DNA from: an uncultured candidatus Porisulfidus sp.
GTDB lineage: Bacteria > Pseudomonadota > Gammaproteobacteria > Poriferisulfidales > Poriferisulfidaceae
Direction of reading: 5' to 3'
Assembly: GCA_965116525.1 (NCBI GenBank)
Contig: OZ220694.1
Location: forward strand, 952,879-1,016,878
Length of the DNA stretch: 64,000 nucleotides
Positions 2,290 to 58,516 of this stretch are shown piece by piece. The notes under the pieces are model-generated. The model was not told the DNA's origin. It worked only from the letters and a program-made list of their open reading frames with translations, and did not search any database. Each line of letters starts with the position of its first letter. Position 1 is the first letter of the stretch. The translations under genes and the position numbers were made by a program.

Positions 2290-3126
2290 ATGGCAGTTTT
2301 CGCCGTCGGTGACATCCAGGGGTGTCTGGACGAACTCTGCTCCGTTTTGAAACAGGCGGGTTTTCGCGCCCGCAAGGACACGCTTTGGTGCGTGGGCGAC
2401 CTGGTCAACCGGGGCCCGAAATCCCTGGAGACCCTCCGCTTCATTCGCGACTTGGGATCCCGAGCGGTCTGCGTGCTCGGCAATCATGACATCACCCTGC
2501 TTGCCTTGGCGGCAGGGGTTCCGATTCGTTCCCAACACCAGTTGCACGAAGTCCTGGAGGCCCCGGACCGCGACGAACTGATCGACTGGCTCCGCTCGCG
2601 CCCGCTGATGCATCATGATGCCGAACTCGACTACGCAATGGTGCACGCCGGACTGCTGCCCGAATGGTCTCTGAAGCAAGCTCTGGGGCTTGCTGGAGAG
2701 TTGGAGACGTTTCTCCGCAGCGATGGCTGGGAGAAGAGGATCCACAAACTCTATGGTCCCAAGCCGCAGCGCTGGAAAGAATCGCATACCGGATTCAAGC
2801 GCCTGCGGATCATCACCAATGTCCTGACCCGGCTGCGCTATCTGGACACCGAGGGCCGGATCGATCTGGACTGCAAGCTTTCACCCGTCAAGTGCCCAAG
2901 GGGGGTGACGCCCTGGTTCAGGGCGCCAGCGCGAAAGACACGCAAGACGCGCATCATCTTCGGTCATTGGTCGACGCTGGGGTTCTATTCCGGCAACAAC
3001 GTCTGGGGGATTGATACCGGTTGCGTCTGGGGACGGAAACTGACCGTCCTTCGGCTGGAGCCGAGCGGCCCCGTGCCGACCCAGATCCTGTGTCAGCAGC
3101 GGGCCTTGATCCGAAAAAATTCCTGA
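2290..3126 (+). CDS. apaH: bis(5'-nucleosyl)-tetraphosphatase (symmetrical) ApaH
   Basis: N-terminal MAVFAVGDIQGC...GDLVNRGP...GNHD metallophosphatase motifs. Confidence 0.93.
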   Translation: MAVFAVGDIQGCLDELCSVLKQAGFRARKDTLWCVGDLVNRGPKSLETLRFIRDLGSRAVCVLGNHDITLLALAAGVPIRSQHQLHEVLEAPDRDELIDWLRSRPLMHHDAELDYAMVHAGLLPEWSLKQALGLAGELETFLRSDGWEKRIHKLYGPKPQRWKESHTGFKRLRIITNVLTRLRYLDTEGRIDLDCKLSPVKCPRGVTPWFRAPARKTRKTRIIFGHWSTLGFYSGNNVWGIDTGCVWGRKLTVLRLEPSGPVPTQILCQQRALIRKNS

Positions 3127-7988: not shown

Positions 7989-8012
7989 GCCTCATAAATG
8001 CATGAGGACGAT
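7989..8012 (-). terminator. putative intrinsic terminator downstream of rpsT
   Basis: Hairpin CCTCAT-(AAATGC)-ATGAGG, followed on the minus strand by a T-rich tract (TTCTTTATTCTT). Confidence 0.35.
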
Positions 8013-8037
8013 ATTCCGGGAATCTCCCGGCGGAGTT

Positions 8038-8304
8038 TTAGGCGCTGAGGCTTTTGATTCGCGCGTTCAGGCGGCTTTTCTGGCGGGCTGCCTTGTTGCG
8101 GTGGATCAACCCACGGGTCACCGCGCTGTCGATCACGGGAACGGCTTCCCGGTAGGATTGCAGAGCCTGCTCGCGTTCACCCTGTTCAATCAGTTTGACG
8201 ACTTTCTTGACGAAGGTGCGATAACGCGACGCCAAAGCCATGTTGGCTTCATGGTGCGAATCCGCTTGACGGGCGCGCTTGCGGGCTTGAGCTGAATTAG
8301 CCAT
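8038..8304 (-). CDS. rpsT: 30S ribosomal protein S20
   Basis: MANSAQARKRARQADSHHEANMALASRYRTFVKKV...LIHRNKAARQKSRL is unmistakable S20. Confidence 0.95.
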   Translation of the reverse strand: MANSAQARKRARQADSHHEANMALASRYRTFVKKVVKLIEQGEREQALQSYREAVPVIDSAVTRGLIHRNKAARQKSRLNARIKSLSA

Positions 8305-8348
8305 AGGCGGCGCATTATATATGATGCGGCCGAAACACAGTTGCGTTT

Positions 8349-9554
8349 TCAGTCTTGCCGCACGATTTCACCGGGAAAGGGCATTCCCGCGCGCAACCAC
8401 CGTGGCCCGTCCAGACACCCATCTGCTTGATGGATGAAAAACCTTCGCACCGTCCGATAACGGCCAGCCAACTCCAGGGCCAAGTCTCCCGCTTGCCTGA
8501 AACCCTGCCATCCACTGGCAAAGCCCAAGCGAAACCCTTCAAGCAGATACTGTGTTGCCCTGACGGGGCCTTTGCGGCGGCGTTCATACGCGCGCATGGC
8601 GCGCATGCTGAGCGAATGAATGTCGATTTCTTCCTGCAGGACGGCTGCATCCATCAGCCCCAAGTTTTGACCCAGTCCTGCCAGGGGGTGCACCACGTGT
8701 GCCGCATCGCCTGCCAGCACGATGCCGTCCGCGCACCAGTGCGGCGCACAGCCACGGCCTAGAGGAAAAGACTTGCGTGATCCGCAAAGGCGAGTCGCGC
8801 CCAAGCGTCCTCCCGTGGCTTCCGTCAGTGCTTTTTCGAATTCTTCCGGATTCAGGTCCATTAGCGCCTCGGCTTGGGTTGTCGACCAGACCAGCGAATA
8901 ATGCCGATTGAACAATGGCAACAAGGCGACAGGGCCGTCCGCGGTAAATCGCTGCCATGCTGTTTGCTCGCCGGGAAGCTCGGTTTCGATTTCCGCAACA
9001 ATCGCCTGCTCGCGGTACGGCTGGTAATCCCACTCGAGTCCAGCCAGTGACCGGGTCTTTGAATCTACGCCATCCGCCGCCACGACCAGGCGGGCATCTA
9101 ACTGCTTGCCGGATTCCAAGCCCAGAGTGACACCCGACGTGTAAGGCTCTAGCTGGGCGATCGAGTCCGGACAGCGAAGCGTCACGCCGGAATCCTGTAC
9201 AGCCTGATGCAATGCTCGGATCAGCACCGTGTTCTCCACGACATGCCCGAGTTGCGGCTTGTTGATGTCGGACGCCAGAAACTCGATCCCATCATGGTCG
9301 GTTTCCCCCCATGCTTGCATCCGGGTCCAGGGCGCGGCCCGGCTCAGATCCAGGTTCTGCCAGGCTCCGCAGGCCCGGAGAATCGCTTCGGATGCCGGAG
9401 TCAACGCCAGCACCCGTATTTCCGGGTCCGGTCCCGGTTCTTTCGGTGGGAGTTCCTGTTGCTCGATCAGTTCCACCTCGAATCCGGACCGCGCCAGCAG
9501 TGCGGCCGTGGTCAGGCCGATCGCGCCTCCGCCGACAACAACAACATCAGGCAT
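8349..9554 (-). CDS. FAD-dependent UbiH/UbiF/VisC(UbiI)-family ubiquinone biosynthesis hydroxylase
   Basis: MPDVVVVGGGAIGLTTAALLARSGFEV is a Rossmann FAD fold. Has the DG(V/I)xS and GDAAH motifs of the family. Part of the conserved pepP-ubiH-visC block. Confidence 0.85.
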   Translation of the reverse strand: MPDVVVVGGGAIGLTTAALLARSGFEVELIEQQELPPKEPGPDPEIRVLALTPASEAILRACGAWQNLDLSRAAPWTRMQAWGETDHDGIEFLASDINKPQLGHVVENTVLIRALHQAVQDSGVTLRCPDSIAQLEPYTSGVTLGLESGKQLDARLVVAADGVDSKTRSLAGLEWDYQPYREQAIVAEIETELPGEQTAWQRFTADGPVALLPLFNRHYSLVWSTTQAEALMDLNPEEFEKALTEATGGRLGATRLCGSRKSFPLGRGCAPHWCADGIVLAGDAAHVVHPLAGLGQNLGLMDAAVLQEEIDIHSLSMRAMRAYERRRKGPVRATQYLLEGFRLGFASGWQGFRQAGDLALELAGRYRTVRRFFIHQADGCLDGPRWLRAGMPFPGEIVRQD

Positions 9555-10785
9555 GGGCCGATCCTTTTCTTCCAGCCTTCAGGGCCAGGTCGGCCCGCGG
9601 CAAGTCAGCGCCCATTCCAAAACGGACCAATCGGGTCCGACATTTCGGCATGCCCTCCAAGGCGAACAGGCTGGCTGCGCGCAAGCCGCGGATTATGGGG
9701 TTTCGCATCACAAACCCGCGGGCAAGGATATCCGTAAATCCGGCGACCCTCCGTGCATCCGTGTCGCGCACCTGCGCGTACTCTTCCAGCAGTTGCGGGG
9801 CACCCGGGTCGGCTCCCTTCTGCTTGGCATCTCCGAGCACCTGGGCAAGCCATGCAGCATCCCGGACCACCAAGTTGAACCCTTGTGCCGCGACGGGGTG
9901 AAAACCATATGCCGCATCGCCGATCAGGACACAGCGCGTTCCTACCCGCTGTTGAACTCGCCGGAATGCCAAATCGTACAAGTTGCGTGGTCCCGCATTA
10001 ATGACTTGGCCGGCGCGCGATCCCAGCGCCTGTTGCAGTTCCCGGCAAAACTTGGAATCCGGCCAGGTTCGGGCCTCCCGGGCCGTCTTGCGGGACAAAG
10101 CCCACACCAAGGCTCGTCGGCCCGACGGATGCGGCAGCAGCGCCAAAGGCCCGGTGCAGGTGAAGCGCTCATAAGCCCAGCCTTCCGCTGCACGATCCAT
10201 TTCCACTTCAGCCACCACCGCGCTTTGATCGTAATCCACTTCTTCCGCATGCAGCCCCAGCGCGTCGCGCAGGGCCGATCGCGCTCCATCCGCCGCGATC
10301 AACAGGCGACCGCACACGGTTTGCGGTGTGTCGCCCTGCTGGATTTTCAGAGCAATGCCGGCACCCTGAGGTTCTACCTCTTCAACGGATGTCTGCGTCA
10401 TAAACGTGCAATTCGGCAAATCGTCGACCGTCTCACGTAAAATTTTGGCCAAAATTCCTGCAGGCACGACATAACCCAGGGCCGGCAATTGCTCATCTTC
10501 GGCATGCAGGCGGGTCGATCCGAAAGCACCGCGCTGGGAGACATCGATGCGCGTCACCTCCGCGCATTCGGGCCTGAGCGCGTCCCATGCTCCGACCTCA
10601 TCGAGAATGCTCCGGGTGCTTTCGGACAGAGCGAGGCTGCGCGGGTCGGACAGGGCGGAAAGTCCATCGCTGCGCTCCAGTACCATGATTCGCCAGCCGG
10701 AAGATCCCAACAAGACGGCCTGCACCAGTCCGGCCAGACCGCCGCCGGCGATAATCAGATCCTGATTTGTTTCGGCTCTGTTCAC
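9547..10785 (-). CDS. FAD-dependent UbiH/UbiF/VisC-family ubiquinone biosynthesis hydroxylase (second paralog)
   Basis: IIAGGGLAGLVQAVLL...GDAAYGFHPVAAQGFNL. Adjacent to pepP and to the paralog, as for ubiH/visC in E. coli. Which one is ubiH versus ubiI cannot be decided by eye. Confidence 0.85.
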   Translation of the reverse strand: MNRAETNQDLIIAGGGLAGLVQAVLLGSSGWRIMVLERSDGLSALSDPRSLALSESTRSILDEVGAWDALRPECAEVTRIDVSQRGAFGSTRLHAEDEQLPALGYVVPAGILAKILRETVDDLPNCTFMTQTSVEEVEPQGAGIALKIQQGDTPQTVCGRLLIAADGARSALRDALGLHAEEVDYDQSAVVAEVEMDRAAEGWAYERFTCTGPLALLPHPSGRRALVWALSRKTAREARTWPDSKFCRELQQALGSRAGQVINAGPRNLYDLAFRRVQQRVGTRCVLIGDAAYGFHPVAAQGFNLVVRDAAWLAQVLGDAKQKGADPGAPQLLEEYAQVRDTDARRVAGFTDILARGFVMRNPIIRGLRAASLFALEGMPKCRTRLVRFGMGADLPRADLALKAGRKGSAHA

Positions 10786-12116: not shown

Positions 12117-14292
<2,176 letters not shown>

Positions 14293-14349
14293 GCGGGGTT
14301 GTTCCAGGGATTCCGGTGCCTGAATGCCCCGGAAAACCAAGCCGGGGGG

Positions 14350-14610
14350 TTATCCGGCCGGGTTGATCGACACGTAGGTGCGGCTTTCGCGCCCGCGTGA
14401 ACGAAATTCCACGACTCCGTCTACCTTGGCGAACAGGGTGTGGTCGCGACCGCAGCCGACGAAAGGCCCGGGCCGAATGCGGGTACCGCGCTGACGCACC
14501 AGGATGGTGCCGGCACGGACCTGCTGGCCGCCGTAACGCTTCACGCCAAGCCGCTTGGACTCGGAATCGCGTCCGTTTCTGGAGCTGCCGCCTGATTTTT
14601 TGTGTGCCAT
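14350..14610 (-). CDS. rpmA: 50S ribosomal protein L27
   Basis: [31 protein letters not shown]. Confidence 0.95.
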
Positions 14611-19396: not shown

Positions 19397-19463
19397 CGAG
19401 GGTATCCGAATATACTAGTGTTCCGAGCATGCGTGCAAAGTTAAGCACGATTTTTTGGCAATC

Positions 19464-20360
19464 ATGATGCCTGATTCCTACCCTATTATCACGGTGAAGC
19501 CGGAATGGGTTTCGGGGCCCGAGGAAATGGGAAGTAAGACGAAATTCTGGTACAGCAATCTGGAAAGGCAGGAAGCAAATTGGCTTTTCAAATACCCGAA
19601 GCCAGGCACAGGAGAGCATTGGGCGGAGAAAATTTCTGAGCAAGTTGCTCATATCCTCCAGATTACGCACGCAAAGGTCGAACTTGCGGAATTTCAGGAT
19701 GAGCATGGTTCAGTAACGAAATCCTTTACTCGTGGGGAGAAAGACCTATGCCATGGGAATGAAGTATTGAGATGGATTGTTCCTGGCTACGATCCTGAGA
19801 AAAAATTCCATCAGTCGGCGCATACCTTGGAGAATATCTTTCAAGCAATGGAGAGAATTTTTATCTCTACGGAAGCAGCAAGATTTGCAAAAGCACGTAT
19901 TTCGGAATATATCGTGTTAGACGCGTTGGTTGGGAACACAGATCGACACCATGAAAACTGGGGCATTCTGCGCGAGCGAGCGGGCGATGGTTGGAGGGGT
20001 TTTGTGGCACCTTCATTCGACCATGCATCTTCATTAGGCCGGGAGCTTTTGGATGAACGTCGCGATAGGTTTTTGGCAGAGAGACTAGTCGGAGGATATG
20101 TGGAAAAAGGCCATGGCGGGATTTACTGGTCAGAAGACGAGAGGCGTGCTCCTAGCCCTTTGGAGTTGGTGCGTCGTGCGGCTCAACGCCACCCGGAGTT
20201 TTTCCAGGGAGCACTAAAGAAAACACAGAGATTGGATGAAAGTACCATGAAAGATTTGGTGAATCGCGTGCCTGATTCTTGGATGACCCCTTCGGCTCGC
20301 GAATTCGCTATCGAATTGATTCGCTATAATTTTAACCAGATGAGCAATCTCCTTTCATGA
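19464..20360 (+). CDS. HipA-like Ser/Thr kinase, C-terminal kinase-core only (HipT-like)
   Basis: Catalytic-loop motif VGNTDRHHENWG matches HipA_C GNTDDHxKNxS. Putative Gly-rich loop VSGPEEMGSKTKF. ~300 aa, lacking the HipA N-domains. The ORF-track start at 19455 is a TTG; the first ATG is at 19464. Confidence 0.7.
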   Translation: MMPDSYPIITVKPEWVSGPEEMGSKTKFWYSNLERQEANWLFKYPKPGTGEHWAEKISEQVAHILQITHAKVELAEFQDEHGSVTKSFTRGEKDLCHGNEVLRWIVPGYDPEKKFHQSAHTLENIFQAMERIFISTEAARFAKARISEYIVLDALVGNTDRHHENWGILRERAGDGWRGFVAPSFDHASSLGRELLDERRDRFLAERLVGGYVEKGHGGIYWSEDERRAPSPLELVRRAAQRHPEFFQGALKKTQRLDESTMKDLVNRVPDSWMTPSAREFAIELIRYNFNQMSNLLS

Positions 20361-21097
20361 ACACCAAAACCCTATTCCTGGCTTGGCAGGACAAGAACCG
20401 GCGCCAATGGTTTCCGGTTGGCAGGTTGGATGCGGATGTCAGTGCGTCGTTCTACCGGTTCCGCTATGTCGCGGGCGCACAACGGGCGCAAAAGGAAGCG
20501 AAATTTCCACTACTGCTCGAATTTCCGGAAGTACGCGAGGACTACAAGTCTGCGGAGTTGTTCGCACTTTTCAAGAATCGAATTATTGCGTCAGGACGCC
20601 CGGACCGCATGGAGTATCTGCAGAATCTTGACCTCAAGGAGGATGCGAACCCCATCGAAATCCTTTCGGCAAGCGGTGGACGTCGAGCCACAGACTTCTA
20701 CGAAGTCTTTCCAAAGATCGTAAAACAATCTGACGGGAGTTTTACCTGTCGTTTTTTCTTGCATGGCTGGCGACATGTGAGTCCGCATGCCCAAGAGCGG
20801 ATGAGGAGTTTGGAGCCAGATGAAGAATTGTACGTGACGCTAGAGTTAACTAATCCAGCGACAGGCTTGGCGGTTCAGATTCAGACGCAAGACTATGAAA
20901 TGATTGGTTGGGCTCCACGCTATCTTTTAAGCGACTTGGTGGCTGCGATGGCAGATTTCCGAAATTATTCCGCACGAGTTGTTCGTGTGAATCTGCAACC
21001 GGCACCGTCGAGACAACGAGTTTTAGTCGAAATGAGCGGCCGTTGGGTTGATCATGAGCCTATGAGCGGCGAAGATTTTGTTCCGCTTGCTGCATAA
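20357..21097 (+). CDS. HipA-N-terminal-like (HipS-like) domain fused to a C-terminal HIRAN domain
   Basis: The N-terminal half follows the HipA_N 'couple_hipA' pattern (L.L.W...PVGRL.....FYRF.Y...PLLLEFP...ELFALFKNRIIASG, EILSASGGRRATDF). The C-terminal half (LEPDEELYVTLELTNPATGLAVQIQTQDYEMIGWAPRYLLSDLVAAMADFRNYSARVVRVN) matches the HIRAN pattern (L.REP.NP.D..A..V......IGY.PR.LA.....SARVVRV). The start overlaps the kinase stop (ATGA). Confidence 0.5.
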   Translation: MNTKTLFLAWQDKNRRQWFPVGRLDADVSASFYRFRYVAGAQRAQKEAKFPLLLEFPEVREDYKSAELFALFKNRIIASGRPDRMEYLQNLDLKEDANPIEILSASGGRRATDFYEVFPKIVKQSDGSFTCRFFLHGWRHVSPHAQERMRSLEPDEELYVTLELTNPATGLAVQIQTQDYEMIGWAPRYLLSDLVAAMADFRNYSARVVRVNLQPAPSRQRVLVEMSGRWVDHEPMSGEDFVPLAA

Positions 21098-21253
21098 TCA
21101 ACCTAAAGACTTGAAATGTTATTTCGTACATTTCGCACTGAGGTTTTAATCGCTTCACTAATTTTGATAGTGCCATCCTGCACGCTGCCCTTCAGAATAT
21201 TTTGTAATCAGTTTTCGGGCACAGCCTAATTCTGTGCGGCTATCGTTGTCAAC

Positions 21254-23755
21254 ATGAATGACTACTACAAGATACTCCGTGTTTTTATTGCCTCTCCAAG
21301 TGATTTGAAGGAGGAACGAAAGGTAGTTCACGAAGAAATCGAGGAATTTAATCGATCTTGGGCAAGCGAATTCGGATATCGGCTTGAACCAGTTGGGTGG
21401 GAGGAGACCATTTCTGGCTGTGGAAGACCGCAACAACTCATAAACCAAGGCGTGGACCAATGTCATCTTTTCATTGGTATGGTTTGGAGGAGGTGGGGCA
21501 CACCGCCGGACAACGATGGAAACTATTCTTCTGGGTTTGAAGAAGAGTTTGATCGAATGATGAAGCGACGCGAGGAAAACGATCATCTTGAAGTTTCTCT
21601 ATTTCTCAAAAAAATTTCTAGTGAATGCAAGGAAGATCCTGACGAACAACTCAAACGAGTTCTAGAGTTTCGAGAAAAAATGAACGAAGAAAAAAAGATT
21701 CTCTATCAAGAGTTTGAAGAAGCACAAGACATGGCGATATTGGCGCGAGATAAAATCAGAACTTTTGTGAAAAAAGTCAAAGTGGCAGATTCGACTGATT
21801 CCAATCAAGCCAAAGAGAGAAGCCCTGACCTAGAACAACAGAATGAGACAAAGGAAGAACGTGATTCTTCTCTTATGCCTGAAAGCATTATTTTTCTTCG
21901 AGATTTGGTTGAGCGTGTTGGTCAGGAGGGTTCGATGGAAAGCCTTAATGCACCTGACATCGCCCGATTCCGCCTGTTGGCAAATTCGGTTTCAAAACCA
22001 GGCAACCATAAGTTAAGCCTAGGAGTTCACGATGCCAATATTCTTTACTTGCATCATATCAATGGCGGCCTGAAACCCGACAAACGAGAAATTATTTTCT
22101 TAACTAGATTGGGCTTGCATAAGCTTAAGAGCGAGAACGTGCCATTCTGGTGTTGGTATTCTGCAATGTTGGCCTCTGGCCCTGGTGCACTTTTGGCCTC
22201 GTCAATGCATGGTGTCGACGACAATGAGAAGATTGGGGCGATCAGAGTATTAGGCGCATTGGAACTTGATTGGCCAACGAACAAGAACTTGCCCCGGGGA
22301 AAAGTTCTAACTTTCTGGTTTTCTAAAGACTCGTCGGCGAAAGTAAAATCAGCCGCTTTAGGCTACCTTGCAACAATAGGCACGACAGAAGACTACTCTG
22401 TTGCCGAGGAAGAATACGGCAGGGAAGATCACCAGACTTCTCGTAAGGCACTTGAGTGCATGATTGCAATTCTCCTTAGAGCCGGATTAGAAGAAGAAGC
22501 CCAACAATTAGTTCTTGAATCACAATTTGAATCGTTGGACGCAAGCATATTGCAGGCAGTTTTAGAAGGCTTTGATCGCATGAAGCTAGCACTGTTGTTG
22601 ATGGGGGTGGAACACCCTATCTCCCAAGTGAGATTGCATGCATTAAATATTTTGCTTGAACGCAATGAGCTAAGCCAAGATTTAGCAGAACAATTGTGCA
22701 AAGACCGCGAAATTTCAATACGCGACTTGGCAATCAAGGCGCTTTTACAATTAGGTAAACCACTAAGTCAAGAGGAAATTAAGAGAATTTTAACGCCACC
22801 TAAAGCGCGGGTTCAGCGTAGCTTATTTAAAGCATTTGCTCCGGATGTGTCAGATAAACAGGCTGAAATGCTTCTTGCCCGCCATGAATGGGAAAGCTTG
22901 ATGAGGCTTTCTGAATCTGAGCTTACCGCGCAAGTTGAAGATGGCTTAATGTATGAGGAAGTAGCGTATTTTGCACGTGCAGAAAAATATTTTTCTCAGT
23001 ATGCAGGGGAATTGAGACGTGATGTTGATGACTCTTTTGGAGCATATTGGGAAGAGCGGCTTCGACGGACAGAGATTGCTTTTCGTGACCACCCTGCTGA
23101 ACTTGAGGAGATGGTAAAAAAGGACAAGGAGCTAGAAAGCTTTCACCGGAAAGAACTTATAAGACAAGGATTAGATGTCCTATGTAGAGTGGGCGAAAGC
23201 GAGGACCTGCATAGAATTAGGGAACACCTCAATGAAGGTGACCTGGAAGTATCTAGGTTGGATGTGAAGTACCTAGCGAGACATGGCAAATGGAAGGACA
23301 TTCCACTACTGACACAGGCGACTGTTCCATTTGAGGGGATTGCCGAAGGTTTGACCACTTCAATGGCGCGTGAAAAAATTCAGACAGAGATTGCAGAGGC
23401 TGCTCTTAACATGAGTTATGGGCACAATCTATCAAAACTGTTTTCCCTGGATATGCCTGTGGACATCTTAGTGAAAATGATTGATTTGTGCCCCGAATCG
23501 AAATTCTCGGAAATTCCGGATGACGTTCTTCTGAAACTCTTTGATAATGAATTGGCGGACTTTCGCAAGGCCGCGTCCATTAAAGCAGTTCAGACTTTTT
23601 CAAGAGAGCGAATCAAATCAATTCTTCACGCATATGCTACTAGTGACCAGCCCCACTATTACAATGTCATTCACTGGTTGGATGTGGGCGTGTCTATGTC
23701 TCGCAATGAGGCAATGAAGGTGGTGGCTACAGCTTCGGGGGACTTTCCCTCTTAA
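21254..23755 (+). CDS. 833-aa protein: N-terminal DUF4062-like (TIR-like) domain plus long HEAT/ARM-type alpha-helical repeat region
   Basis: The N-terminal segment YKILRVFIASPSDLKEERKVVHEEIEEFN fits the DUF4062 hallmark (FISS..DL.eER). The remaining ~700 aa are Leu/Glu/Lys-rich repeats with HEAT-like units (VRLHALNILLE, IRDLAIKALLQLG). No P-loop or nuclease motif seen. Lowest-GC part of the window. Confidence 0.55.
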   Translation: MNDYYKILRVFIASPSDLKEERKVVHEEIEEFNRSWASEFGYRLEPVGWEETISGCGRPQQLINQGVDQCHLFIGMVWRRWGTPPDNDGNYSSGFEEEFDRMMKRREENDHLEVSLFLKKISSECKEDPDEQLKRVLEFREKMNEEKKILYQEFEEAQDMAILARDKIRTFVKKVKVADSTDSNQAKERSPDLEQQNETKEERDSSLMPESIIFLRDLVERVGQEGSMESLNAPDIARFRLLANSVSKPGNHKLSLGVHDANILYLHHINGGLKPDKREIIFLTRLGLHKLKSENVPFWCWYSAMLASGPGALLASSMHGVDDNEKIGAIRVLGALELDWPTNKNLPRGKVLTFWFSKDSSAKVKSAALGYLATIGTTEDYSVAEEEYGREDHQTSRKALECMIAILLRAGLEEEAQQLVLESQFESLDASILQAVLEGFDRMKLALLLMGVEHPISQVRLHALNILLERNELSQDLAEQLCKDREISIRDLAIKALLQLGKPLSQEEIKRILTPPKARVQRSLFKAFAPDVSDKQAEMLLARHEWESLMRLSESELTAQVEDGLMYEEVAYFARAEKYFSQYAGELRRDVDDSFGAYWEERLRRTEIAFRDHPAELEEMVKKDKELESFHRKELIRQGLDVLCRVGESEDLHRIREHLNEGDLEVSRLDVKYLARHGKWKDIPLLTQATVPFEGIAEGLTTSMAREKIQTEIAEAALNMSYGHNLSKLFSLDMPVDILVKMIDLCPESKFSEIPDDVLLKLFDNELADFRKAASIKAVQTFSRERIKSILHAYATSDQPHYYNVIHWLDVGVSMSRNEAMKVVATASGDFPS

Positions 23756-23870
23756 GAATCCTGTCAGTGACCAAGAGAGCCAGCAAGTTACGAACTGCCA
23801 CATTCCGAAAATCAAGAAGAAACTTGCCATAATAGTATTACTCCGCCAGTGAGAGCATCGCTGGCCCGAT

Positions 23871-23896
23871 GCCTCCTCCGGGAGGCGTTTCTTTTT
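23871..23896 (+). terminator. intrinsic terminator (GCCTCC-TCCG-GGAGGC + TTTCTTTTT) closing the islet
   Basis: Perfect 6-bp GC stem with tetraloop followed by a U-tract. Lies between convergent genes. Confidence 0.7.
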
Positions 23897-23928
23897 AAAA
23901 TTTAAGATTGAGGCCTTTCGGTCAGTGG

Positions 23929-52785: not shown

Positions 52786-53097
52786 GGTCGGAACAGAAAC
52801 CGGGTGCGCATCATAAGAGAACTGCCGCCAATGTCAAATGCCGCCCAACTTTCGGTAGCCCCGAAGTGTGGAATCCGGTGAAGAAAATGTTGCCGAGGGC
52901 AATGTTTAAGCGGTTGCCGTGCCATGGATTTTCGGGAGGTTTAAGAAAGCCATCGCCGGTGTGGCGAGAATAAAAATCTTCTCTCTAAAGGGGTATTTGG
53001 GGATATTGATAACTGGTACAATGGGGGTAGGTCGATTGTCGCTTAGGCAAGAATGCTCGACCGGCGATCGGCCGGTAATTTTGACAGGAGGTATACC

Positions 53098-53619
53098 ATG
53101 TCAAGTCTCGTAGCATTATCTGTAAGTATTGGTGTTTTAGGCGGTGTCGCAACGGCACTGAGTTTAGGCCCGTTATCAGGAATCGTCTACATTTGGGTAG
53201 CTTTCATTGCCTGGGCCTGTTACTTCGCAATCGGGGGAGACCAAAAGGCGTTGCAAAACACAATTGTTTGCGGCATTCTCGGTGCAGTGATCGCTTGGGT
53301 GGCGCTGCTCGTTATTCTGACGATCCCACTGGGCGAAGCGCTTACCGTGCCAATCTGGGCGGGAGTCGTGGTGGCCGTAAGTGTTTTAGTCATGTGCCTG
53401 TTGGCTCACGTCGAATACTTTTCCTCGATCCCGGCAAGCGTTCTGGGCTATGCAAGTGTAGCTGGCTATGCGTTGCAGACCGAGGGCGCGTTCTCCATGG
53501 AAGCGCTGGGTTCTGCTGGAACTTCAAATGCATTGATTGTCGTCGCGATTTCTATAGTCGTTGGCGCGGTCTTTGGCATGATTTCCGGCAAAGTCGGCGG
53601 AATGCTTTCATCGGAGTAA
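53098..53619 (+). CDS. hypothetical polytopic membrane protein
   Basis: ~173 aa, 5-6 hydrophobic helices. Start placed at MSSLVALSV. Followed by an intrinsic terminator. Confidence 0.5.
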   Translation: MSSLVALSVSIGVLGGVATALSLGPLSGIVYIWVAFIAWACYFAIGGDQKALQNTIVCGILGAVIAWVALLVILTIPLGEALTVPIWAGVVVAVSVLVMCLLAHVEYFSSIPASVLGYASVAGYALQTEGAFSMEALGSAGTSNALIVVAISIVVGAVFGMISGKVGGMLSSE

Positions 53620-53651
53620 TATAGACAAACTATAAAACTTAGCCTCACTAA

Positions 53652-53680
53652 ACGCCCAGCTCCGGCTGGGCGTTTTCTTG
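53652..53680 (+). terminator. intrinsic terminator (ACGCCCAGC-TCCG-GCTGGGCGT + TTTCTTG)
   Basis: 9-bp GC-rich stem with tetraloop followed by a U-rich tract, 33 nt after the membrane-protein stop. Confidence 0.7.
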
Positions 53681-53762
53681 CCTTCACGCTGGGGTAGGAA
53701 TACCGGGGAAAGCCTGCAACCTATTGAAAAACTAGTTTTTTATTGGAATTTCCTGTCTTCGG

Positions 53763-54467
53763 TCAATATTTCAGCCAACCGTCCAAGATGGAGAACAGAG
53801 CCTGCCGCGCTGGCATGGCACACTCCACAGTGCGTGCCCTGATTTCTGCGGCATCTTGAACGAACTTCTCGGGAACCAGTTCATCCTTGAAGTGCTCGGT
53901 CATCACGCCTACTTCTTCTTCTCCCATCTCCAAGTGGAACTGAAGTCCCAGCACTCTTCCTTCATACAGAAATCCCTGGTTGGCGCAGGCCTCACTTCCC
54001 GCGATGCGCATCGCACCCGGAGGTGTCGCGAACGTGTCGCCATGCCAGTGCAAGACATCCATCTGACGGTTCAGGCCCTGCCCTAGTTGGGTGTCCAGGA
54101 ATGCGTCCTCCAAGAGGATCGGAAACCAGCCGATTTCCGTGCATGGATTCTTCCGGACTTCCGCTCCCAAAGCTTTGGCGATCATCTGGGCACCGAGACA
54201 GATGCCGAGGACATGCTTTCCTTGATCGACCGCTTCTCGGATGAAGCGTAACTCGTGATCAAGCCAGGGGTGCTGACCTCCGTCGCACACGCCCATCGGT
54301 CCTCCCATTGCCACCAGTACGTCGTAATCGTCATGGGAAATAGACAAGGGTTGCTTTTGGTACTGCCTATGCCGGATCAGTTGGCCGCCGAGATCCCGAA
54401 TATACGCAGAAATCGTACCAACCCCCTCTTGCGGCACATGTTCGATGGAAAAAAAGCGGAAAGTCAT
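53763..54467 (-). CDS. class I glutamine amidotransferase-like protein
   Basis: Nucleophile elbow GICLGAQ with downstream His/Glu region. GMP-synthase-type GATase1 fold, 234 aa. Confidence 0.75.
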   Translation of the reverse strand: MTFRFFSIEHVPQEGVGTISAYIRDLGGQLIRHRQYQKQPLSISHDDYDVLVAMGGPMGVCDGGQHPWLDHELRFIREAVDQGKHVLGICLGAQMIAKALGAEVRKNPCTEIGWFPILLEDAFLDTQLGQGLNRQMDVLHWHGDTFATPPGAMRIAGSEACANQGFLYEGRVLGLQFHLEMGEEEVGVMTEHFKDELVPEKFVQDAAEIRARTVECAMPARQALFSILDGWLKY

Positions 54468-54955
54468 GAGTTGGGTGGGCCAATTGCGGAATTTTCGGTT
54501 TCGGATTGCTGTTGCTGCCAGTATTTAAACACTATCGGGGGAATTCCAAGCGATTCCGCGTCTTCGGCAGTCATGGTCTGCAGGCGTTGTAGGGTGCCAG
54601 CGACAAAGCCCCCGCGGGCTGGAGCCGGCAAAAGGGTCCGGATGCGTTCCGTGAGAAGGAGGGATAATGTCTGCCCGCATGCGGCATCGCGAATTGCTTC
54701 GCGCAGCAGGGCCTGCTGCAGCGCATCGAGCGTCTCGTCCTCGACTCTCGGGTCCACCTCCTGCGGGGTTGCGATCCGGTATCGCCTTCCTTTATTGGTG
54801 CCGGTGACTTCGACCTGCCCTTCATCGCACAATGCGAGCAACCAGCGGCGTAAGGTCCGGTCATTAACCTGGAATCCCTCACGAAGTTCGGATATCAGAG
54901 CAGGATGTTCTAATTTTCTTAGATAAGATAGCAATTTACGGTGCTCAAGCCGCAT
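54464..54955 (-). CDS. winged-helix DNA-binding protein (putative transcriptional regulator)
   Basis: N-terminal LLSYLRKLEHPALISELREGFQVNDRTLRRWLLALCDEGQVEV...RYRI is wHTH-like. Co-directional with and 131 nt downstream of fic. Overlaps the GATase start. Confidence 0.5.
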   Translation of the reverse strand: MRLEHRKLLSYLRKLEHPALISELREGFQVNDRTLRRWLLALCDEGQVEVTGTNKGRRYRIATPQEVDPRVEDETLDALQQALLREAIRDAACGQTLSLLLTERIRTLLPAPARGGFVAGTLQRLQTMTAEDAESLGIPPIVFKYWQQQQSETENSAIGPPNS

Positions 54956-54962
54956 ATGTATT

Positions 54963-55014
54963 GTCCGATATATGTCCGATAATAGGATAATTATAAACTA
55001 TATTATATCGGACA
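54963..55014. promoter_or_regulatory. operator-like repeats upstream of the wHTH gene: TGTCCGATA x2 direct (11-bp phasing) plus a perfect inverted copy TATCGGACA
   Basis: ATGTCCGATA...TATCGGACAT are exact reverse complements separated by 24 bp of AT-rich DNA. Lies in the 131-nt gap between the fic stop and the wHTH start. Confidence 0.5.
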
Positions 55015-55086
55015 TTTCTTTAAGATAATTTTGGGTTGCTTGAGATTCCCGTAAATGCTAGGGACGCAAAAATTTTCCGCGCGATT

Positions 55087-56436
55087 TCAGCTCGATAAAT
55101 CGCTGATTTTTTTGCTCAGGTTTTCAGCCGGAAAAAAAACTGTCGCTCTGCCTCTCCGGTTCCCCTGAACAAGTAGTTCGCGCCCTTCTAAATCAAGTAG
55201 ATCTGCCCGCGCTGTCGCGTAAGCGACCCCATGGCTTGTTTGATGGGACCTAAAGGTATAGCCATCACTATTCCCTCGAATCGCATGGCTGAGTAGCGCT
55301 AACTGCCTATGGTTGAATTGCCTGACACCTTTTAGTCGTTGCTCCAGGTCTTTCGCCTGTTCAATTTTTTTGTTCAGATATTGCTCTAAATCGGCAATAG
55401 ATGAAATGATGACCTTTAATTGATGCGCAATAAAGTATGTTAAATCGTTCTCATCGGTTTCCGAATATAAATAAGCGTAAGCATACCGTGCAGGAGCCTT
55501 CTTTATATTCCTTGATATAGAGATACATTCGAACAGCCAATAATTCTGCTTGAGCATCGACCAGTAGAACAATGCGCGCGCCAACCTTCCATTTCCGTCT
55601 TCGAACGGATGATCGAAACCGATCCAAAAATGCAAAAGAATAGATTTGATAATGGGATGAATGAAAGTTGGGGCCGTGTGTTCGTCGTTTGCGAATTCAC
55701 ATAACTCCTTGATCCGGCCGGGGAGTTGATCTGCAGGCGGAGGGGTGTGCAATTTTCTGTTTCTGGCATCAAATACCCCCACCCTTACATCATCACTCGT
55801 TTGCAGCTTTCCTGCCGCCTCAGCATCTTCCAGTGTTTGGTCGGTGACAATCCTGTGCAAGTCTAAGATAAGTTCGGGAGTCAGTTTTTCGCTCTTTATC
55901 TCCCTGACAACATTCATGGCCGCATAATTGTTAAGGATCATTCGCTCATGCTGGTTTTTGGGCCTGCGTCCGGATCTCAGCATATTTGACGCAATCTTTC
56001 GGGACGTCGACGCGCCTTCTAGTTGGCTTGATGTGATTGCTTCCTCGATAAGAGAGCTGACAATATAGCGATTCCTTGTCTCTGGATTTGTAACTTGCTC
56101 CGATATGGCAACCTGGCCTGTGGCTTTACTGTCAATTTCGTGCAGCATCTCTAGTACTGTATCGGGCATGCAAAAACTAAAGTGCGTCCCCCTCGCGTCT
56201 TTTAGGGGAATTCTCTTTCTCAATTGAGCACGTGCCATTTTTATTCCCAACCACCAAAGATCGTGGTTGAGGCCTTCAGGAGGTTTTCTATATTTCAATT
56301 CGGCCCAGTGTAAGTATTTTCCTTTGATTGTGGGCAGGGTTGTGACGTCAGGCTGTAAAAACAGCTGGCTCAAATCCTTAGGATCAGCTCTCCCTACGAT
56401 GTCTGATATTGAGGGGGCGTTTTGCGGCCTTCTCAT
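55087..56436 (-). CDS. Fic/DOC family protein (putative AMPylase), intermediate GC
   Basis: Canonical Fic motif HPFEDGNGRLARAL. N-terminal helical extension and C-terminal wHTH-like tail. GC lower than flanking genes. Confidence 0.85.
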   Translation of the reverse strand: MRRPQNAPSISDIVGRADPKDLSQLFLQPDVTTLPTIKGKYLHWAELKYRKPPEGLNHDLWWLGIKMARAQLRKRIPLKDARGTHFSFCMPDTVLEMLHEIDSKATGQVAISEQVTNPETRNRYIVSSLIEEAITSSQLEGASTSRKIASNMLRSGRRPKNQHERMILNNYAAMNVVREIKSEKLTPELILDLHRIVTDQTLEDAEAAGKLQTSDDVRVGVFDARNRKLHTPPPADQLPGRIKELCEFANDEHTAPTFIHPIIKSILLHFWIGFDHPFEDGNGRLARALFYWSMLKQNYWLFECISISRNIKKAPARYAYAYLYSETDENDLTYFIAHQLKVIISSIADLEQYLNKKIEQAKDLEQRLKGVRQFNHRQLALLSHAIRGNSDGYTFRSHQTSHGVAYATARADLLDLEGRELLVQGNRRGRATVFFPAENLSKKISDLSS

Positions 56437-56476
56437 GGCATCTCCGCAACTTTTTCTGGCGACTCAATCATAGCAT

Positions 56477-56573
56477 AACTATCAATATTTCTTCAATTGA
56501 TAGTTATTGACACTTAACTATCAGTTACTATCAGAAATCGGAAAATTGATAGTCATTGATACTTATCTATCAG
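56477..56573. repeat. array of seven 9-bp TTGATAGTN / NACTATCAG-type motifs (alternating orientations) in the fic-mnmG intergenic region
   Basis: AACTATCAA (56477), TTGATAGTT (56497), AACTATCAG (56516), TACTATCAG (56527), TTGATAGTC (56546), TTGATACTT (56556), ATCTATCAG (56565). These form at least two palindromic TTGATAG-N10/14-CTATCA units. Confidence 0.7.
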
Positions 56574-56683
56574 TTTTTCTCGGCAATACTGGGTAATTCA
56601 AGCAAATTCTCTAGTTGGTTTCCTATAGCAAACTAAAATCGGTACCGTTTCCCTTTGGGATTAGCAGTATATTAAGCGGCGCA

Positions 56684-58516
56684 ATGACGGGCGTAATTCG
56701 TACTTGGGATGTTCTGGTCATCGGCGGCGGCCACGCCGGCGTGGAGGCGGCGCTTTCGGCCGCGCGCACCGGCGCACACACCCTGCTCCTGACCCACCGT
56801 TTCGTTGCGATCGGCCAGATGAGTTGTAATCCGGCGATTGGCGGTATCGGCAAAAGCCATCTAGTGCGTGAAATCGATGCACTCGGTGGGGTCATGGCGC
56901 AGGCTGCGGACCGTGCCGGGATCCATGTCCGAGTGCTGAACAGAAGAAAGGGACCGGCGGTGCATGCTACCCGTGCCCAGACCGATCGCAAGCTCTATCG
57001 CGAAGCCATCCAGAATTCCGTCACCGAGGCCCGAAACCTGGAGGTCCAGTCCGTTGCCGTCGGCGACTTGATCGTGCAGGACGGCAAGGTGCGCGGCATT
57101 CTCACCGAGGAAGGGGACCGCATCGAAGCGCCTGCGGTTGTATTGGCCACCGGCACATTTCTGGACGGCGCCATTCACATCGGGGCGGAACAGACTCAAG
57201 GCGGTCGAGCGGGAGACCCCCCGTCCCTGCTCCTTGCGCATCGGTTGCGTGAACTGCTGCCGGATGTCGGGCGCCTCAAGACCGGAACCCCTCCCCGCCT
57301 GGATGGGCGGAGCATCGACTGGTCGAAGACCTCCGTCCAGCCTGGAGAGATGCCGCCGCCGCCGCTGTCCCGGCTCAGTCCGCCAGACGTGCATCCGCGG
57401 CAGGTGAATTGCCACCTGACGCGTACGACGGAGGCCACTCACGATTTGATTCGCGCGCATTTGCACCAGTCGCCGATGCACACCGGGGCCATCGACAGTC
57501 GCGGGCCGCGTTATTGCCCTTCGGTCGAAGACAAAGTGGTCCGTTTCGCCGAACGCCCGTCGCATCAGGTGTTCATCGAACCTGAAGGACTGGACACCCA
57601 CGTGATCTATCCCAACGGAATTTCCACCAGCCTGCCGGCTGAGGTGCAGGAACAGTTTGTCCGGACTATTCCAGGTTTTGAGGAAGCACAGTTGACGCGC
57701 TACGGCTACGCCATCGAATATGACTTCTTCGATCCGCGGCAATTGCGCCCGACACTGCAATGCAAGGCTTTGCCTGGCTTGTATTTGGCCGGACAGATCA
57801 ATGGCACGACCGGTTACGAGGAGGCAGCCGCGCAAGGGCTGCTCGCAGGTTACAACGCAGCGGCTCAAAGCCAAGACCGAGAAGCCTGGTGGCCGCGCCG
57901 CGATCAAGCCTATATCGGCGTTCTGGTCGACGACCTGGTCACCCGGGGCGTGGATGAACCCTACCGCATGTTCACCAGTCGCGCCGAATACCGGCTGACC
58001 TTGCGGGAAGACAACGCCGACTTGCGTTTGACCGAAGCCGGGCGTGAACTGGGCTTGGTCTGTGACGCACGTTGGGAACTCTTTTGCGAACGACGCGACG
58101 CGTTGGAGCAGGAACTGGAACGACTGCACACCACCCGGCTGGGCGAGGACAGTCTGGCCGATATTCTGCGCCGCCCTGAAACAGATTACGCGAAGGCCGT
58201 CTCGATGTCTCCGGCGTACGAACCGGCCAGCCTCGATATTGGCCGTCAGGCGGAAATCGAACTTCGCTACGAAGGCTACATCCGCCGCCATAAGCACGAA
58301 ATCGAACGTCTGAAACAAGACGAAACCCGCCGCTTGCCGGAGGGAATCAACTACCGGTCGATCACCGCCCTGTCTCATGAAGCACGAGAAAAACTGAGCC
58401 ATTGTCGGCCTGCAACACTGGGGCAGGCCGCCCGCATTCCCGGAGTGACGCCTGCCGCCGTCGCGATCCTGAAGGTTCATTTGAAGGCTGACGGCATCCG
58501 GCAACAGGGCGTCTGA
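56684..58516 (+). CDS. mnmG: tRNA uridine 5-carboxymethylaminomethyl modification enzyme MnmG (GidA)
   Basis: [31 protein letters not shown]...[29 protein letters not shown]-binding N-terminus. The true ATG is at 56684. Confidence 0.95.

Follow-up and report, generated by a model that had tools for sequence, protein, structure and literature searches.

A DUF4062-HEAT gene in a low-GC island

The stretch analysed here, 64,000 nucleotides (nt) of contig OZ220694.1 from an uncultured candidatus Porisulfidus sp. (the window), contains a gene whose predicted product joins an N-terminal DUF4062 domain, TIR-like in fold, to a long C-terminal array of HEAT-like helical repeats. The product, hereafter the DUF4062-HEAT protein, is a candidate anti-phage protein that would act by depleting nicotinamide adenine dinucleotide (NAD+). 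The gene had been proposed from the letters of the window (the original prediction), and the list of open reading frames (ORFs) and the translation confirmed that its frame of 833 amino acids (aa) is real. The gene and the island that encloses it are located as follows.

21254-23755, + strand: DUF4062-HEAT gene, stop codon included, ATG start, 833 aa
19400-23930, no strand: low-GC island (GC 0.36-0.55 against ~0.62) in a 200-nt composition profile, containing the gene pair PDC-M03A/B and the DUF4062-HEAT gene

Full-length homologues have a similar length, ~800-835 aa, and align end to end as a discrete family. The gene has a GC content of 0.443, below that of every other gene measured; a Fic gene follows with 0.463, and the window background is ~0.62. 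This agrees with its description as the most AT-rich gene of the window. The low-GC island is ~4.5 kb long and sharply bounded, and lies between a gene for an outer-membrane beta-barrel protein (OMP) and a VWA gene. No tRNA gene, flanking direct repeats or integrase gene marking the boundaries of a mobile element was found for the island. The same gene arrangement is present in contig L084 of a Ca. Poribacteria metagenome-assembled genome (MAG).

The public gene call for the source genome, P0002 (732 aa), is 100% identical to the window sequence and begins at the internal Met102. It omits aa 1-101 (window 21254-21556), which is the whole DUF4062 catalytic region, and its precomputed Pfam list contains HEAT_2 alone. 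This annotation error would hide the gene from defence searches based on domains, and the predicted catalytic domain is lost through the choice of M102 as the start, which is a lesson for annotation. An antisense ORF of 142 aa (window 21158-21586, - strand) overlaps the 5′ end of the gene and is probably spurious.

The TIR-like head and its predicted active site

The N-terminus had been likened to DUF4062, a TIR/nucleoside deoxyribosyltransferase (NDT)-like domain, with a profile hidden Markov model (PF13271) and structure prediction suggested as checks; both recovered the domain. In Pfam, DUF4062 (PF13271) matched aa 9-100 with E=2.1e-10 and 41.1 bits, above the gathering threshold of 24.7, and the match recurred when the N-terminus was searched alone. 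In the full-length AlphaFold2 (AF2) model, built from a 59-sequence alignment (mean predicted local distance difference test score, pLDDT, of 78), an alpha/beta domain of five beta-alpha units spans aa 6-154, with strands bA (6-13), bB (42-48), bC (72-77), bD (113-119) and bE (151-154). A separate model of the N-terminal part had a predicted template modelling score (pTM) of 0.74. The predicted fold is that of the TIR-like/NDT superfamily, a flavodoxin-like five-stranded parallel sheet with TIR domains as its nearest structural neighbours, and the low-confidence loop at 49-59 is the counterpart of the BB-loop. The Pfam DUF4062 model is reported to cover approximately half of the true domain (10.64898/2026.05.01.722283), which fits the extent of 6-154 observed in this protein. 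The features of the head are as follows, where Eva01 is a DUF4062 defence protein of the Evangelion type described below.

21254-21721, + strand: TIR-like (DUF4062) alpha/beta domain, aa 1-156, five beta-alpha units
21284-21286, + strand: codon of F11, an invariant aromatic residue and the equivalent of Eva01 F11 (hhalign and HMMER alignment)
21530-21550, + strand: active-site motif S93-G-F-E-E-E98-F99 (family alignments, HMMER, Pfam anchors)

DUF4062 was recently identified as a TIR-like NADase domain that yields ADP-ribose (ADPR) and nicotinamide (Osinski et al. 2026, 10.64898/2026.05.01.722283). The catalytic glutamate is E97 in the Swarozyc protein KpSwz, E87 in Eva01 and E1008 in TEP1. 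The HMMER alignment with Eva01 paired S93-x-x-E96-x-E98-F99 with S82-x-x-E85-x-E87-Y88, and the anchors and coordinates of the Pfam profile gave the same register, in which E98 (codon 21545-21547) corresponds to Eva01 E87. The pairing of F11 with Eva01 F11 was obtained by hhalign as well as by HMMER. S93, G94, F95, E97 and E98 did not vary in any of three alignments, of 59, 33 and 63 sequences, and F11, E97 and E98 remained invariant across family members at 25-50% identity. Because E96 varies in the family, unlike E97 and E98, the most plausible catalytic residue is E98, judging from these alignments. The two residues expected of a DUF4062 NADase, a catalytic glutamate and an N-terminal aromatic residue, are thus present as E98 and F11, with a two-residue shift in hhalign as a caveat, and the search for a catalytic glutamate suggested by the original prediction found the position conserved. 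The same prediction had described the protein as having no enzymatic or NTPase domain; the second half of this statement stands, as no Pfam NTPase match and no Walker motif were found, while the first does not, as DUF4062 is itself an NADase domain (10.64898/2026.05.01.722283) and the glutamate position is retained as E98.

Stalk, linker and HEAT-like solenoid

The remainder of the protein consists of the following features.

21722-21808, + strand: long stalk helix after the TIR-like domain, aa 157-185 (AF2 helix 157-185/188, pLDDT >90 over most of it)
21809-21877, + strand: acidic, low-complexity, disordered linker, aa 186-208 (pLDDT <50)
21878-23734, + strand: HEAT/ARM-like alpha-solenoid, aa 209-827, ~38 helices (AF2 model), putative trigger sensor
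22322-22813, + strand: ~31-residue HEAT (alphaRep/PBS-type) repeats detectable by sequence, aa ~357-520 (family profile, Pfam)
23657-23683, + strand: best conserved C-terminal motif, Y-Y-N-V-I-H-W-L-D, aa 802-810 (63-member alignment)

In the full-length model the disordered stretch extends over residues ~181-206, followed by an all-alpha solenoid of ~620 aa. The HEAT_2 profile of Pfam matched aa 452-524 marginally (28.4 bits against a cut-off of 27.7). The C-terminal family profile searched against the PDB retrieved only alphaRep/HEAT repeat proteins (E=5.4e-14, aa ~357-520), and Foldseek with the solenoid gave generic matches only, to PP2A-A, karyopherin-beta and SF3B1, with E down to 3e-5. 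The tandem helical hairpins of ~31-40 residues and the alpha-solenoid that define HEAT repeats are therefore recovered by HEAT_2, alphaRep and PP2A-A/karyopherin-beta matches. A hidden C-terminal enzyme was considered and rejected, as the Pfam, NCBIfam, PDB profile and fold searches returned only HEAT, alphaRep and karyopherin-type matches. No NTPase core was detected, there being neither a Pfam NTPase match nor a Walker A or B motif in the 833 aa, and the protein does not belong to the STAND/NLR-like proteins, which have a NACHT, NB-ARC or AAA P-loop core. The AF2, Pfam, Foldseek and Walker searches thus bear out the reading of the rest of the protein as HEAT/ARM-like repeats of sensor type lacking a NACHT/AAA core.

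The near-invariant residues of the solenoid across phyla were H259, N262, E279, W299, W301, D651, R656, D682, Y803, W808 and D810 in the alignment of 63 diverse members. Three of them, Y803, W808 and D810, lie in the Y-Y-N-V-I-H-W-L-D motif and are conserved in at least 97% of these members.

Family distribution, architecture and selection

A word search found more than 400 family clusters at 90% identity, and an exhaustive search with the solenoid only yielded 857 clusters (50% identity, E<=1e-3), 362 of them with E<=1e-30. Architectures were listed for the top 150 representatives of the solenoid search, with ~700 weaker matches outside this set. In every full-length match among the 150, the solenoid begins at residue ~205-240, and the DUF4062-HEAT architecture is fixed among these full-length members. 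Within this set of 150, no protein was sensor-only or carried the solenoid with a swapped effector, and two short matches that were examined proved to be fragments at contig edges.

The Y-Y-N-V-I-H-W-L-D motif was used as a family-specific search pattern. The scan, with one genome per species, found 132 relatives in 185,579 species (~0.07%), distributed over Alpha-, Beta- and Gammaproteobacteria, Desulfobacterota, Chlorobiota, Verrucomicrobiota, Acidobacteriota, Planctomycetota and Nitrospirota, with one archaeal relative in a Nanoarchaeota MAG. The family is therefore sparse yet phylogenetically scattered. It is also found in Poribacteria-like sponge symbionts. Cultivable genera with orthologues are Pseudomonas (P. 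kielensis, L021), Shewanella (S. mangrovi, L011), Microbulbifer (M. rhizosphaerae, L010) and Marinobacter. The homologues are not core genes; they are few, patchily distributed and have moved horizontally. Neither of the two outcomes that the original prediction had named as speaking against it, the lack of a TIR-like fold or homologues that are ubiquitous core proteins, was observed, as the fold is predicted and the distribution is patchy.

Five family copies lie on IMG/VR viral contigs. On one of these, of 43 kb (L087), the member (7989-10448) is 2.4 kb from a terminase large-subunit gene (12840-14585; phrog_9, E=7e-153), which indicates that some copies are carried by phages or prophages. 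Two other copies are interrupted by insertion sequences (IS), one by a Mutator-family transposase gene (L071, 10001-13546) and the other by a DDE_Tnp_1 transposase gene (L066, 292-3948), which suggests that some hosts can dispense with the gene or bear a cost from it.

The mean pairwise identity of the 63 diverse members was 48% in the TIR-like domain, 28% in the solenoid and 13% in the linker; the solenoid thus diverges faster than the effector head. The ratio of nonsynonymous to synonymous substitution rates (dN/dS) against the Poribacteria orthologue was 0.19 overall; the TIR-like domain had 0.14, the solenoid 0.19 and the stalk and linker together 0.5. The overall value indicates that the gene is under purifying selection.

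A conserved partner gene was sought by all-against-all clustering of the ORFs flanking 83 other family loci and was rejected. The commonest neighbour, a generic family of variable position and orientation, was present at only 7 of the 83 loci, and the recurrent clusters were generic SDR, LysR and histidine-kinase families and integrases. As no neighbour exceeds 7/83, the gene is a stand-alone one, with a DUF4062 core and an auxiliary C-terminus and no obligatory partner.

Comparison with known systems

Proteins of two recently described types share the DUF4062 core. Single-gene Swarozyc proteins such as KpSwz defend by abortive infection, and defence by KpSwz needs the catalytic E97 and a C-terminal helix-turn-helix (HTH)/winged-helix auxiliary region (AUX) that binds the phage portal; both NADase activity and defence are lost in the E97A mutant, and the TIR-like heads are autoinhibited in stalk-linked dimers (10.64898/2026.05.01.722283). 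The DUF4062-HEAT protein resembles KpSwz in being encoded by a single gene, in its N-terminal DUF4062 head of five beta-alpha units with a (here predicted) catalytic glutamate, its helical stalk and its C-terminal auxiliary region, and in its patchy, horizontally transferred distribution. It differs in the auxiliary region, which is a small HTH/winged-helix domain in KpSwz and here a HEAT-like solenoid of ~620 aa with no detectable relationship to it; the portal-binding HTH/winged-helix region of KpSwz-type Swarozyc proteins is therefore lacking.

The Evangelion proteins consist of a DUF4062 core and a diversified AUX (Ibarra-Chavez et al. 2026, 10.64898/2026.06.25.731849). In Eva01, the mutations F11A and E87A and truncation of the AUX each abolish defence, and NAD+ drops upon infection (10.64898/2026.06.25.731849). 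The DUF4062 core, F11, the S-x-x-E-x-E-[Y/F] motif and the arrangement of core and AUX in a single gene are common to Eva01 (pMW2 WP_000072390) and the DUF4062-HEAT protein. Eva01 is distinguished by its 324 aa, its short AUX, its location on a staphylococcal plasmid and escaper mutations in phage recombination proteins. The two are remote from one another, with 22% identity, an hhalign probability of 38% and E=3e-4, and the DUF4062-HEAT protein is, by these alignments, a lineage different from Eva01. A HEAT-type AUX is not mentioned in the Swarozyc or Evangelion preprints (10.64898/2026.05.01.722283, 10.64898/2026.06.25.731849).

In PADLOC the family is recognised only through its N-module. 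Head and stalk (aa 6-181) matched positions 3-176 of the profile PDC-S60 (PDLC05050) with E=8e-27, while the other ~730 of the 906 profile positions had no match, so that the effector module is the same and the C-terminus different, and the protein is not a full-length PDC-S60. No literature on PDC-S60 was found. The DUF4062-NACHT-WD40 STAND proteins (TEP1, NWD1/2 and bacterial TEP1-like proteins) likewise have a DUF4062 head N-terminal to a repeat-type sensor, but they contain a NACHT NTPase oligomerisation core, whereas the DUF4062-HEAT protein has no NTPase and no Walker motifs.

DSR2 is a large polypeptide in which an N-terminal SIR2 NADase is followed by a C-terminal HEAT sensor that captures the phage tail-tube protein, leading to NAD+ depletion (PMC11850899, PMC11263360). 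The functional logic, an N-terminal NADase and a C-terminal HEAT sensor in one chain, would be the same in the DUF4062-HEAT protein, where it is predicted, and DSR2 is the closest functional parallel for an NADase carrying a HEAT sensor. The effector of DSR2 is SIR2 and not TIR-like; no SIR2 match was found in Pfam, and DSR2 chains were absent from the profile and fold matches of the solenoid. The likeness is one of functional analogy and not of family membership. SARM1 (ARM-SAM-TIR) is further removed, being eukaryotic, with the domain order reversed, oligomerisation as an octamer through SAM, and a canonical TIR domain. The ARM domain of SARM1 senses nicotinamide mononucleotide (NMN) and NAD+.

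Proposed function and alternative explanations

We consider the gene to encode a stand-alone NAD+-depleting abortive-infection protein consisting of a TIR-like effector, a stalk and a HEAT trigger sensor, with a probability of roughly 0.6. By analogy, it is most likely of the same kind as Swarozyc and Evangelion, that is, a single-gene anti-phage protein of the DUF4062 superfamily. After the 2026 preprints the architecture is no longer a mystery, and the family is a large, distinct candidate lineage of a known defence kind, with a HEAT solenoid as its AUX.

In the proposed mechanism, the N-terminal TIR-like domain would be the effector, and helix 157-185 would act as a stalk that pairs protomers and keeps the heads autoinhibited, a role in dimerisation suggested by the stalk of KpSwz. 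The solenoid, on its flexible linker, would be the sensor, and the trigger would be phage-derived, with an abundant protein of phage structure or replication as the likeliest candidate. On trigger binding, the heads would be rearranged or brought together in an active assembly, which would switch on the NADase; the ensuing depletion of NAD+ would stop phage propagation. The NADase chemistry, oligomerisation through the stalk, sensing by the solenoid and the abortive outcome are all proposed by analogy with the systems above.

The rarity of the family across many phyla, the low-GC island, the IS-disrupted copies, the phage-adjacent copy, toxin-antitoxin and Abi neighbours in some members (the neighbourhoods of L001 and L002 contain AbiE, HigBA, PIN, SLFN/AlbA and IS21 genes) and the dN/dS of 0.19 together indicate the behaviour of an accessory gene. 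With this distribution, the invariant active-site positions and the solitary gene, the defence-like role put forward by the original prediction is retained as a predicted one.

Several observations weigh against this assignment. Three of the four human DUF4062 proteins, NWD1, NWD2 and NPHP3, had no NADase activity in vitro (Osinski et al., 10.64898/2026.05.01.722283), so a DUF4062 domain alone is no guarantee of activity. The comparison with KpSwz and the TIR domain of TEP1 was made by description and not by sequence or structure, and the hhalign register places Eva01 E87 opposite the variable E96, not opposite E98. The sampled neighbourhoods had a low content of defence genes, with no clear gradient between near and far positions: PADLOC matches, counted per family and not per protein, amounted to a handful each in 140 near and 140 far ORFs, and most of the neighbouring genes were housekeeping. 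With so few PADLOC-positive genes near and far, enrichment in defence islands is not established across the family. Finally, the near-invariant solenoid residues are unusual for a pure arms-race sensor. These residues, as conserved in the alignment, could form a surface for a conserved ligand or for intramolecular docking, and they are the most interesting loose end, as a simple arms-race sensor leaves them unexplained.

A defence protein with a different head chemistry is rather unlikely. The head could produce a signalling nucleotide (an isomer of cyclic ADPR or a His-ADPR-type product), or it could cleave NADP, nucleotides or nucleic-acid bases as an NDT/MilB-type N-glycosidase, in place of plain NAD+ depletion. 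Against this, no partner effector able to respond to such a signal is conserved beside the gene, the C-terminus contains no enzymatic domain, and assays of two DUF4062 enzymes, KpSwz and TEP1, showed no products other than ADPR(P) and nicotinamide (10.64898/2026.05.01.722283).

A non-immune role, either as a catalytically silent DUF4062 scaffold comparable to NWD1, NWD2 and NPHP3 or as a regulatory or adaptor HEAT protein with an accessory cellular function, appears improbable. The mostly housekeeping neighbours, among which enrichment of defence genes could not be demonstrated, and the conserved solenoid residues, which suggest a conserved partner, would fit such a role. It is difficult to reconcile with active-site residues that are invariant over very wide divergence, with extreme patchiness (~0.07% of species genomes, over many phyla and an archaeal MAG), with the atypical GC, the IS-disrupted copies and prophage carriage, and with the occurrence of some homologues among AbiE, HigBA, PIN and SLFN genes.

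If the gene does encode an NAD+-depleting abortive-infection protein, a large immune family, with 362 or more clusters at 50% identity, has been missed as such by defence catalogues, and the DSR2 design, and more loosely that of SARM1, has been repeated with a different enzyme, adding a case of convergence on solenoid sensors in NADase immunity. A bolder version, which we hold to be doubtful, would make the family a major branch of TIR-like NADase immunity that has escaped cataloguing, and its solenoid a new kind of sensor, with a pocket comprising H259/N262/E279/W299/W301 and Y803/W808/D810 for a conserved ligand. Candidates for such a ligand would be a phage structural fold of universal conservation, or a small-molecule or metabolite cue as in the SARM1 ARM domain with NMN/NAD+, and not a lineage-specific phage protein; the trigger logic would then be unlike those of Swarozyc (portal) and Evangelion (recombination proteins). 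The orthologues in the cultivable genera named above would make the family tractable for finding the ligand of the solenoid.

Neighbouring genes and flanking signals

The remaining genes of the low-GC island and the signals on either side of the DUF4062-HEAT gene are as follows.

19455-20360, + strand: HipA_C-like kinase, 301 aa, of the PDC-M03A/B pair (Pfam, PADLOC)
20357-21097, + strand: HIRAN-domain protein, 246 aa, of the PDC-M03A/B pair (Pfam, PADLOC)
21113-21134, no strand: GAAATGT-N8-ACATTTC, inverted repeat within the upstream gap of 156 nt, considered non-functional
23868-23899, + strand: terminator-like hairpin of 9 pairs (5 G-C) followed by a T-tract, 113 nt past the stop codon (consensus scan and sequence)

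The HipA-like and HIRAN ORFs overlap by 4 nt, and the pair matched the PADLOC candidate PDC-M03A/B over its full length (E=7e-84 and 2e-78). HIRAN domains bind DNA ends or damaged DNA. By these profile matches the pair is a separate candidate system, PDC-M03; no functional literature on it was found, and the combination of a kinase and a HIRAN protein may be worth a study of its own. A link between the DUF4062-HEAT gene and the HipA-like pair, which the original prediction had proposed to examine by co-occurrence, did not hold, as no HipA or HIRAN homologue lay within 10 kb at any of the 83 other family loci; the gene is thus not a member of PDC-M03. The arrangement with HipA and HIRAN is shared only by the orthologous Ca. 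Poribacteria locus, which has the same UbiE and OMP flanks, and common descent rather than independent co-occurrence accounts for it because this is a close relative with identical flanking genes. A three-gene system, in which the pair might for example control the NADase in response to damaged or phage DNA, is favoured by the single sharply bounded island, the common strand, the arrangement kept in Ca. Poribacteria and the lack of a clear terminator between the HIRAN and DUF4062-HEAT genes in the consensus scan, but it is rejected as very improbable given the 0/83 co-occurrence, the end-to-end match of the pair to a two-gene system, the GC contents of 0.48 and 0.51 for the pair against 0.44 for the DUF4062-HEAT gene, and the descent of the sole shared arrangement. 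On a single metagenomic contig (L092), a family member is followed directly by a gene (2229-2621) for a NUDIX hydrolase, an enzyme type capable of processing ADPR; none of the 83 genome loci shows this arrangement.

The gap of 156 nt to the upstream ORF and the perfect 7-bp inverted repeat in it are present as originally described, but the repeat carries no significance. Perfect 7-bp inverted repeats occurred in 11% of shuffles of the gap, which is chance level. The left arm reads GAAACAT, with two uncompensated changes, in the 91%-identical orthologue, and the repeat is not conserved in L084/L085. A role as operator or terminator was rejected on these grounds and for want of a T-tract. At the site of the right arm (21128-21134), L084 has a 7-nt tandem duplication, CATTTCG CATTTCG (~3033-3046), which looks like local slippage and not a conserved element. 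No sigma-70 promoter was found in the 156-nt gap. The hairpin and T-tract at 23868-23899 are likely a terminator, judging from position and stem quality, as terminator-like sites in the region were not above the shuffle expectation.

A second low-GC patch, at 53000-57000 of the window (0.45-0.55), contains an unassigned ORF of 163 aa and the following genes, and may be another horizontally acquired island.

53053-53619, + strand: DUF1097 protein gene
53763-54467, - strand: class-I glutamine amidotransferase gene
55087-56436, - strand: Fic/DOC-family protein gene, 449 aa, GC 0.463

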